A DNA stretch of 64,000 nucleotides, taken from an uncultured Gammaproteobacteria bacterium (lineage in GTDB: Bacteria > Patescibacteriota > Microgenomatia > UBA10105). Below, piece after piece: positions 30,182 through 32,288 of the stretch. The first letter of the stretch is position 1; every line of letters begins with the position of its first letter. Both the position numbers and the translations under genes were made by a program. The notes below the pieces were generated by a model, which saw nothing but the letters and a program-made list of their open reading frames with translations, ran no database searches and was not told the origin of the DNA. The stretch covers positions 16,316 to 80,315 of the forward strand of contig CAYPMW010000001.1 of NCBI GenBank assembly GCA_964412165.1, given 5' to 3'.

Positions 30182-30601
30182 TTGATAATAATTGGAGGAG
30201 GATACACTGTCATTAAATTTTTCGCATCAAACTCAAAGGTTCAACCGTTGCCCATTGAAACCACTTCACCAAACGTGTACGAACTTGATCCCTCCGTCAC
30301 CGTAGAGCTTACACCGAGGGCTGACAAAAAAGCTGTGAATTTAAGTATCACTAATATACCTCAGGATACCTCACAAATAGAATATGAATTGAGTTATTTG
30401 ACGGGTAACGAATTACCAAAAGGTGCAGTAGGAACTATACGAGTTGATAGTCAGTCGACAATAGAACGAGAAATACTTCTGGGAACATGTTCTAAAAATA
30501 CCTGTACCTATGATGAAGGGGTGAAAAGTGTTACTCTCGTTTTACGCTTCAGTGGTTTACAGGGAATAGCTCAATTTATAAGAGAGTATTCGCTTGATTA
30601 G
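30182..30601 (+). CDS. Hypothetical small membrane-anchored protein
   Basis: The frame is open back to 30146 and encodes a hydrophobic helix (AIIITAIVLLIIIGGG) before a polar domain. The start codon is uncertain: TTG at 30182, or a non-canonical start upstream. Confidence 0.35.
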   Translation: MIIIGGGYTVIKFFASNSKVQPLPIETTSPNVYELDPSVTVELTPRADKKAVNLSITNIPQDTSQIEYELSYLTGNELPKGAVGTIRVDSQSTIEREILLGTCSKNTCTYDEGVKSVTLVLRFSGLQGIAQFIREYSLD

Positions 30602-30743
30602 GTCTCAGTCTCAAGTCTTAGAGGACCAAATAATTCTTGGGAATTTTCTCCAGCCTAATTATAACGTACTTTTTTTTACTCTACATATAGTGTTTCTTCA
30701 GTGGTGAAAACCCCTTGACTTTATTCACGTAAAAAAGGCAAAA

Positions 30744-30771
30744 TGGTGTAAGGTGGTGTAAAATGGTGAAA
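30744..30771 (+). repeat. Three phased direct repeats TGGTG(T/A)AA with 10-bp spacing; candidate MraZ operator
   Basis: TGGTGTAA at 30744-51, TGGTGTAA at 30754-61 and TGGTGAAA at 30764-71. The last repeat overlaps the mraZ ATG at 30763. Confidence 0.45.
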
Positions 30772-31197
30772 GTCTCTAAATTGGGTTTGTTTCTCGGGGA
30801 ATATCGGCATACACTCACGGATAAAAACAGAGTTGCACTGCCAAAACGTATCAGAGTAGAAATTGAAGGATTTGAGGTGATTCTCGCTCAGGGGTATGAC
30901 CAGTGTATTGTGGGATATACAAAAAATACCTGGGAAGATATGGCAATGCAGCCATTAGCCATACCAAGTTATGAAGAACAGGGAAGAGTACTCCGCAGGC
31001 GTTTGTTTTCTACAGCAGTAGTAGTTGAACTTGATACGCAAGGCAGAGCGGTACTACCTGAACGACTGCTTAAATGGGCAACGCTTGAGGGTCAGATTGG
31101 GGAGGAAGTAGTGATAATTGGGGCTGGAGATCATTTCGAGATTTGGCAAATGGATCTATGGGAAAAATATCTTGATCGGATGCAGAATCAGGGGTAA
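30763..31197 (+). CDS. mraZ: Division/cell wall cluster transcriptional regulator MraZ
   Basis: Contains the FLGEYRHTLTDKNRVALPKRIR motif (DxKxR-type) and the second half-repeat; about 144 aa. First gene of the dcw cluster. Confidence 0.8.
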   Translation: MVKVSKLGLFLGEYRHTLTDKNRVALPKRIRVEIEGFEVILAQGYDQCIVGYTKNTWEDMAMQPLAIPSYEEQGRVLRRRLFSTAVVVELDTQGRAVLPERLLKWATLEGQIGEEVVIIGAGDHFEIWQMDLWEKYLDRMQNQG

Positions 31198-31364
31198 CGA
31201 TTGAGGAGATTTGTAAACCTATCGGGTAAGTAGCCTACCCCGGTTTACCTAAACTTAGGAGGTGATTTTTTTGAGTTTTCTACTGAATGGCAATAAAATG
31301 CGTCGCAGATTAGCGCAAATTCTTGCTCAGGCAGCCGAAAGCGAAGCAAATCAGGAAAAGAATA

Positions 31365-32288
31365 ATGAGATTAAACAAGAACAACCAGATACACATACCA
31401 GTTCTGTTGACTGAAGTACTGGGGTATCTACAAGTTGTTCCGGACAATTGGTATATTGATGCGACGGCCGGTTTCGGCGGACATACAGAGAAAATAATAG
31501 ATCAAGGGGGAAGAGTTCTCGCTATTGAATGGGATAAAGATGCAGTTGCATTCTTAGAAGGAAAATTTACAGGTGAAATCAAATCAAGACGGTTAATCAT
31601 AGCGAAAGGAAATTTTATACACGTAAGAAGATTTTCACTGAAATTTGGACTACCAAAGATAAAGGGAATTCTTTTTGATCTGGGAATGTCGACTTTTCAA
31701 ATAAAGAACTCTATGAAAGGATTTTCTTTTTTAAAGCATGAAAAACTGGATATGCGGATGACGGAGGATATTCAGACTGATGCATATACGATTATTAATT
31801 CAAGTAGTTTGGATGAGCTGACCTTTATCTTCATGAAATATGGGGAAGAACGGTTTGCACTTGAAATAGCTCGTGATATCGTCCGTATTCGTAAAGTAAA
31901 ACCAATTAGATACGCTGATGAATTAGCTGAAATAGTAGAGAAAATATATAAATCAAAACATCTACGTATAGAGCAACACGCTGCCACTCAGATTTTTCAA
32001 GCTTTACGTATGTATACAAACCACGAATTAGACAACTTGAAGTTAGCACTGCCTGACTCATATTCACTACTTGATATAGGTGGACGTCTGGTCGTTATCA
32101 GTTTTCATTCGCTCGAAGACCGGATGGTAAAACAACATTTTCAGCGATTCCAAAAAGAACATGGTGCTCTCGAGCTTACTCATAAGCCGATCCGGGCTCG
32201 GAAAGAAGAAATTCAGAGGAACCCATCTGCCCGAAGCGCTAAATTAAGAGTTGTAGGAAAAAATCATTCATATGAAGTCAAATCATAG
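31365..32288 (+). CDS. rsmH: 16S rRNA (cytosine1402-N4)-methyltransferase RsmH
   Basis: HIPVLLTEVLGYL...YIDATAGFGGHTEKII. The start is taken at the internal ATG (MRLNK). Confidence 0.85.
   Translation: MRLNKNNQIHIPVLLTEVLGYLQVVPDNWYIDATAGFGGHTEKIIDQGGRVLAIEWDKDAVAFLEGKFTGEIKSRRLIIAKGNFIHVRRFSLKFGLPKIKGILFDLGMSTFQIKNSMKGFSFLKHEKLDMRMTEDIQTDAYTIINSSSLDELTFIFMKYGEERFALEIARDIVRIRKVKPIRYADELAEIVEKIYKSKHLRIEQHAATQIFQALRMYTNHELDNLKLALPDSYSLLDIGGRLVVISFHSLEDRMVKQHFQRFQKEHGALELTHKPIRARKEEIQRNPSARSAKLRVVGKNHSYEVKS

Follow-up and report, generated by a model that had tools for sequence, protein, structure and literature searches.

Phased (A/G)TGG boxes at the mraZ promoter of a Microgenomates genome form a probable MraZ autoregulatory operator

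MraZ boxes have been defined experimentally in distantly related bacteria. The MBRs of Bacillus subtilis are three GTGG[A/T]G repeats separated by 4-nt spacers that are unique in the genome and are needed for MraZ-mediated repression. The Burkholderia cenocepacia promoter PmraBc has seven-nucleotide repeats with 3-nt spacers, which lie downstream of the -10 element and overlap the transcription start site; EMSA demonstrated the binding. The B. cenocepacia paper describes the Escherichia coli MraZ repeats as likewise located downstream of the -10 and overlapping the transcription start. The E. coli K-12 promoter, which we read directly, has the arrangement TTGACA-N18-TAAACT-N7-GTGGG-N5-GTGGG-N5-GTGGG-N19-ATG, and its record annotates MraZ as a repressor. 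The Mollicutes MraZ box is AAAGTG[T/G]. In the cryoEM structures of MraZ, four subunits of an opened oligomer each engage one box through K13, R15, and R86, and binding is cooperative. The Mycoplasma genitalium protein was studied using a GFP reporter in E. coli with and without MraZ supplied in trans (PMC12957436). Activation was reported for the Mycoplasma gallisepticum protein on overexpression.

The window analyzed here is a 64-kb stretch of DNA whose closest proteins and loci belong to Candidatus Microgenomates/Gottesmanbacteria metagenome-assembled genomes of the Candidate Phyla Radiation (CPR). Upstream of its mraZ gene, which encodes a cell-division regulator, are glyS and a hypothetical gene; downstream are rsmH/mraW (PF01795), an ftsL-sized ORF, and a PBP/ftsI gene. 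This locus is the head of a dcw cluster in its canonical context. A phmmer comparison with PDB sequences aligned MraZ residues 9–139 with the M. pneumoniae and M. genitalium proteins (E values of 6e-20 to 2e-16). The alignment places K21, R23, and R95 of the window protein opposite the base-contacting K13, R15, and R86 of M. genitalium MraZ, and neither R23 nor R95 varies among 35 homologs. Of the two DXXXR motifs, the second is preserved as DTQGR. The first is TDKNR in the window's clade (30817–30831, residues 19–23), with its Asp displaced by one position compared to M. genitalium D11; distant Microgenomates homologs carry the Asp at the canonical place, for example LDDRGR. The contacting Lys and Arg residues are thus kept, and the first motif is not literally DXXXR. 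The coordinates of the gene and of the promoter elements are collected in Table 1.

Table 1. Features of the mraZ promoter region and gene in the window. Distances with a plus sign are counted from the first T of the -35 hexamer.
Feature	Sequence	Position	Strand	Remarks
U-box	GTGGTGAAA	30701–30709	+	Lies 42 bp (~4 helical turns) from box 1 and 5 nt from the -35, upstream of both
-35 hexamer with C-rich 5' extension	CCCC and TTGACT (30715–30720)	30711–30720	+	From alignment and promoter scan
Degenerate spacer remnant	GTAAAAAAGG	30729–30738	+	Most relatives have GTGAAAAATGGG here, that is, GTGAAA at +10 and the first RTGG box at +17/18
-10-like hexamer	CAAAAT	30739–30744	+	18 nt after the -35; the final AT is the first two bases of box 1
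Operator box 1 (predicted)	ATGGTGTAA	30743–30751	+	+28; overlaps the -10 and the predicted transcription start region
Operator box 2 (predicted)	GTGGTGTAA	30753–30761	+	+38; identical to a B. subtilis GTGGTG repeat
Operator box 3 (predicted)	ATGGTGAAA	30763–30771	+	+48; holds the mraZ start codon and the Val-Lys codons
mraZ ORF		30763–31197	+	144 codons; Pfam MraZ PF02381, E value 8.7e-26; PDB matches 1n0e, 9qlg, 9sx6

The initial annotation described TGGTG repeats beginning at 30744, 30754, and 30764, one helical turn apart, and direct reading of the sequence returned the same positions and steps: TGGTGTAA at 30744–51 and again at 30754–61, and TGGTGAAA at 30764–71, with a mutual spacing of exactly 10 bp. 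The phasing holds, but the repeat unit has to be shifted because the conserved core, (A/G)TGG, starts one base earlier. In this register the window has three same-strand direct repeats with an MraZ-type core, ATGGT, GTGGT, and ATGGT, at 30743, 30753, and 30763. An alternative register of GTGT, GTGT, and GTGA (30746, 30756, and 30766) was rejected; relatives conserve the RTGG register only (ATGGG, ATGGA, GTGGG, and GTGGT). Along the promoter the order is CCCCTTGACT, which contains the -35, ttattcacgtaaaaaaggCAAAAT, which contains the -10-like hexamer, and then GGTGTAAGGTGGTGTAAAATGGTGAAAGTC. A promoter scan independently returned TTGACT-18-CAAAAT at 30715–30744. The -35 is therefore where the initial annotation had placed it. 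The array is not merely downstream of it, since the first box overlaps the -10. Transcription is predicted to start at about 30750–52, which would leave a leader of ~12 nt. The third repeat does overlap the mraZ start codon, the first ATG of the ORF being 30763–65.

The number of copies of the single word TGGTGWAA is unexceptional, with eight found in the 64-kb window against 5.4 expected. However, four of the eight fall within 70 bp, and they include a fourth copy at 30702 that was absent from the initial annotation. The phased triple TGGTG-N5-TGGTG-N5-TGGTG occurs once in 64 kb. Shuffles give an expectation of 0.09 for the triple with up to two mismatches, and base composition gives ~4e-5 per window for the exact triple. 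No other RTGG[TG]-N5-RTGG[TG] pair was found on either strand of the window. CCYCTTGAC was not significant as a general promoter signature, with two matches in the window.

The conservation of the array was determined in a set of Microgenomates mraZ loci consisting of 80 from species-representative genomes, 80 from metagenomes, and four contigs with an identical protein. Each locus was anchored twice, initially by the conserved FLGEY codons and later by the -35 hexamer. At least three TGGs in one 10-bp phase within 60 nt after an invariant TTGAC were present in 118 of 133 non-redundant loci, compared to 1 of 752 control TTGAC sites elsewhere within the same loci. RTGG-N6 repeated three times within 160 nt upstream of mraZ was present at 62 of the 80 genome loci, and there were two matches elsewhere in ~398 kb on both strands. 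The initial annotation had named conservation upstream of mraZ orthologs as a check, and these counts bear it out: the repeats are kept there and are rare elsewhere. Many loci with the same promoter-operator block and a Microgenomates-type mraZ are deposited under the label "uncultured Gammaproteobacteria bacterium" (MAG TPA_asm; L002, L003, L007, L008, and many others), and L017, labelled "Bathyarchaeia archaeon," is also a Microgenomates-type mraZ locus. These organism labels are evidently unreliable.

Alignment of the promoters on the -35 shows where the array is anchored. TTGAC is invariant and the preceding C is conserved in 86% of the 78 loci aligned in this way. Conservation is below 0.2 bit per column upstream of about -20 and is strong from there to ~+55. 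In the per-column profile, counted with the first T of the -35 as reference, TGG peaks at +18/19, +28/29, +38/39, and +48/49. The corresponding boxes are RTGG in 65% of loci at +17/18, ATGG in 118 of 118 at +27/28, RTGG in 86% at +37/38, and RTGG in 81% at +47/48, where a T follows. The family-wide core is RTGG[G/T]. The T of TGG is at +8 or +9 modulo 10 from the -35 in all 118 loci, and the distance from the -35 to the FLGEY codons varies from 50 to 151 nt. The phase is thus fixed to the -35 while the distance to the coding sequence is not, and these data assign the array to the promoter rather than to the ribosome-binding site or the coding sequence. In each of the 118 loci, the six bases up to and including the AT of the invariant ATGG box follow the pattern nAnnAT (CAAAAT, GAAAAT, AACTAT, GACTAT, and others). 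Their location 17–18 nt after the -35 identifies them as the -10 element, so the operator shares two bases with the -10. GTGAAA is found at +10 in 59 of the 118 loci. The window array is in the +9 register, and its boxes 1–3 are the counterparts of family boxes two to four. No TGG is present at +18/+19 in the window; the spacer box typical of its relatives is degenerate, and three boxes remain.

A group of Daviesbacteria-type loci (L006, L021, L028, L046, L047, L063, L113, L116, L151, and similar) has long mraZ leaders, 82–151 nt from the -35. Just ahead of the start codon, these leaders have a conserved (T)TCTGCCCAGAA that resembles GCCTGCCC, a sequence found downstream of mraZ in the window's clade.

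The location of the start codon inside the last box raises the question of whether the boxes in this clade are a by-product of translation signals. The window and L001–L003, L083, L084, and L087 (proteins P0002–P0024) share an 8-residue N-terminal extension, MVK(V/L)xKxG, and more distant homologs begin at MFLGEY. Most differences among the extension codons of these seven lineages are at wobble positions. Codon 4 is GTC, GTA, GTT, ATA, CTT, or ATT; codon 6 is AAA, AAG, or CGG; and codon 8 is GGT or GGA, leaving the Gly invariant. L083 has GTG-GTA-AAA where the others have ATG-GTG-AAA. There is no in-frame start upstream of 30763 in the window, and a TAA is present at 30730. The wobble-type variation and the lack of an upstream in-frame start indicate that the extension is translated and that the start codon is inside the last operator box. 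The last box of L088 likewise supplies the ATG, with a shorter extension. Box 2 and its flank, AAGGTGGTG (30750–58), lie 6 nt before the ATG and appear to resemble an extended Shine-Dalgarno sequence, TAAGGAGGTG. The conservation of boxes 2 and 3 within the clade is therefore not independent evidence for an operator because both are also under Shine-Dalgarno and start-codon constraint there.

These features could be read to mean that box 2 is a Shine-Dalgarno sequence, box 3 is the start codon followed by Val-Lys, box 1 is the -10 and start region, and the phasing is a coincidence. The resemblance of AAGGTGGTG to a Shine-Dalgarno sequence, the conservation of MVK as protein, and the coding-type substitutions in codons 4–8 all fit this reading, which we nevertheless consider very unlikely. 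In most Microgenomates the phased boxes are well upstream of the start codon. Gottesmanbacteria-type loci have an in-frame TAG after the last box, and the distance from the first base of this box to the ATG downstream is 16 nt. The box phase relative to the -35 stays constant in Daviesbacteria-type loci, where the FLGEY codons are 82–151 nt away. The -35/-10 spacer, an untranscribed stretch, contains boxes as well, and the chance expectation of the triple (~4e-5) argues against coincidence. Across lineages the box phase tracks the -35 and not the start codon, and a pure Shine-Dalgarno or coding by-product was rejected on these grounds.

Conserved elements are also found upstream of the -35. 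The sequence (G/T)TGGTGA is at exactly -14 from the -35 in all seven clade lineages (GTGGTGA in six and TTGGTGA in L087), 41–42 bp upstream of box 1; this is the U-box of Table 1. GTGA[AT] within 22 nt upstream of the -35 was detected in 68 of 118 loci, compared to 5% of random 22-nt windows. The position of this GTGAAA/U-box element floats between -15 and -11 in the wider group and is fixed only in the window's clade. The U-box may serve MraZ as an additional site, or it may be a promoter-upstream element. A palindrome-like ACTCTA-cata-TAGTGT (30678–30693) precedes it on the same strand by about 8 nt. L001, L003, and L084 share the form ACACTA-N4-TAGTGT, and six of the seven clade lineages show no variation in the CTAC...TAGTGT columns. 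By its sequence, this element looks like a site for a dimeric regulator.

The additional conserved elements around the -35, which include GTGAAA at about -12 and +10 and the ACTCTA-N4-TAGTGT element, suggest that other factors may act at the mraZ promoter. They would also fit a reading in which the phased boxes themselves are bound by a different regulator or a nucleoid protein, or act as RNA in the 5' leader. This reading is extremely improbable. The motif equals the experimentally defined MraZ box of four distant species, and it is confined to the region upstream of mraZ as judged by the window and the loci of its relatives. At the RNA level, direct TGG repeats cannot pair with each other, and part of the array is upstream of any plausible transcription start. 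An Rfam search of 30550–30900 at a permissive threshold returned only mir-202, an animal miRNA, at 20.8 bits compared to a gathering score of 51. Folding of the leader was not better than that of shuffled sequences (z = -1.2). An RNA element was rejected because there was no Rfam match above noise and the folding was ordinary. A DnaA box was considered by eye and rejected: a single Gottesmanbacteria-type box, TATGGATAT, agrees at seven of nine positions with the reverse-complemented DnaA box, TGTGGATAA, and the window boxes match at about five of nine.

The gap between mraZ and rsmH contains several elements of its own. A nested hairpin follows the mraZ stop codon on the plus strand (31213–31248; GTAAACC-tatc-GGGTA-agtagcc-TACCC-c-GGTTTAC). 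By inspection, the arms differ in relatives and still pair, for example GAGCAAATC...AGGCAT...ATGCCT...GATTTGCTC in L003, and a GCCTGCCC(T/G)G motif is common to L002, L003, L083, L084, and L085. The hairpin is not unusually stable (z = -0.15), has no T-tract, and has no Rfam match. A conserved small plus-strand ORF of 47 amino acids (31271–31414) begins with TTG as (M)SFLLNGNKMRRRLAQILAQ..., is preceded by the Shine-Dalgarno sequence AGGAGGTGA at 31257–65, and extends past the rsmH start (ATG 31365) in a different frame. It had no significant Pfam or NCBIfam match. Its N-terminal motif, (L/R)LNGxxMRxxL, directly follows mraZ in 28 of 165 loci when a strict pattern is applied, and in many cases it abuts the mraZ stop codon or overlaps it, for example MVRLNGAQMRQKL... 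in L005. Judged from sequence, the ORF may encode an undescribed small protein of the dcw cluster in Microgenomates. The promoter scan also returned a promoter-like TTGAGT-17-TAAAAT at 31271–31299 on the plus strand, at the start of the small ORF. Thus, transcription of rsmH and the dcw genes after it might also start from a second promoter that MraZ does not control.

The conservation of the array, its match to the published boxes, and the retention of the contact residues support the proposal of the initial annotation that this is an MraZ autoregulatory operator. We conclude that the phased boxes at 30743–30771 very probably serve this function and that the autoregulation is probably negative; MraZ binding, the transcription start, and the sign of the regulation are all inferred from sequence. 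In the proposed mechanism, the MraZ oligomer would open and each of its subunits would place a cradle-like AbrB-type motif in the major groove at a single (A/G)TGG core. With a core every 10 bp, one face of the helix would present all of them, and binding would be cooperative. Boxes 2 and 3 would cover the predicted start site and the early transcribed region. Since two bases of the -10 belong to box 1 and the start would lie under boxes 2 and 3, bound MraZ would exclude RNA polymerase or block formation of the open complex. The expected outcome is repression of mraZ and of the downstream dcw genes.

The sign of the regulation is not guaranteed because of the M. gallisepticum report that overexpressed MraZ activates. 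The boxes could be a real MraZ operator at which MraZ activates or has a dual role, and the conserved box-like element at 30701–09 is upstream of the -35, where activators often bind. We regard activation as unlikely. The -10 and the bases immediately after it are overlapped by the strongest and best-conserved boxes. This is the geometry of a repressor site, and it recurs in E. coli, B. cenocepacia, B. subtilis, and M. genitalium, for all of which repression was demonstrated. Repression by MraZ bound across the -10 and the start is the preferred interpretation.

A more tentative proposal, which we consider possible but doubtful, is that the operator was remodelled in the window's clade by loss of the spacer box, acquisition of a bipartite arrangement with the distal GTGGTGAAA, use of the last box as coding sequence, and use of the middle box as the Shine-Dalgarno sequence. 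If this is correct, an MraZ oligomer could contact the DNA on both sides of the -35, with the distal GTGGTGAAA four helical turns upstream of box 1. The last box would have been captured as the start codon and the Met-Val-Lys of the 8-residue extension, and a single 30-bp stretch would be under a triple constraint as operator, ribosome-binding site, and coding sequence.

The motif, the spacing, the placement, and the mechanism are already described, and the biology is expected rather than surprising. The phylum is new for an MraZ operator, since our literature search found no paper joining MraZ with the CPR, Patescibacteria, or Microgenomates. The analysis would extend the known MraZ autorepression circuit of the division and cell-wall operon to the CPR. 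It also provides a well-defined reference for a sigma-70-type promoter of the CPR, with a -35 of TTGACA and a -10 of nAnnAT. We know of no transcription factor–operator pair in the CPR that has been tested experimentally.

The operator logic proposed in the initial annotation agrees with the known sites: the RTGG[G/T] box and the 10-bp period correspond to those of B. subtilis, E. coli, and M. genitalium. The window shares with B. cenocepacia the seven-nucleotide repeats and 3-nt spacers in the -10/transcription start region. B. cenocepacia has four repeats and a 100-nt leader, whereas the predicted leader of the window is only ~12 nt. The M. genitalium and M. gallisepticum operators (cryoEM 9qlg and 9sx6) have the same layout of a heptamer with a 3-nt A-rich spacer, and the transcription start is within the array. 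In contrast to the four boxes with a GTGT core in Mycoplasma, the window has three strong boxes with an RTGG core and a distal box-like element 42 bp upstream. As in B. subtilis Pmra, there are three sense-strand direct repeats with a 10-bp period; the middle box of the window is exactly GTGGTG and the outer two are ATGGTG. The triple is unique in both cases (in the genome there and in the window here) and overlaps the core promoter. Unlike B. subtilis Pmra, the predicted operator of the window has A as the first base in two of three boxes and the start codon inside the last box. The E. coli promoter Pmra shares the -35 element (TTGACA there and TTGACT in the window), the 18-nt spacer, and the 10-bp period. 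Its array extends from 7 nt after the -10 to 19 nt before the ATG, whereas the window array extends from within the -10 into the coding sequence, and the fifth base of the box is G in E. coli and T in the window. The E. coli boxes at +37, +47, and +57 are in the same phase as those of most Microgenomates (+17, +27, +37, and +47), one nucleotide off from the window (+28, +38, and +48). The near identity of the E. coli and Microgenomates geometries, with TTGACA, a 17–18-nt spacer, and the same helical phase from the -35, points to a very old and rigid architecture.
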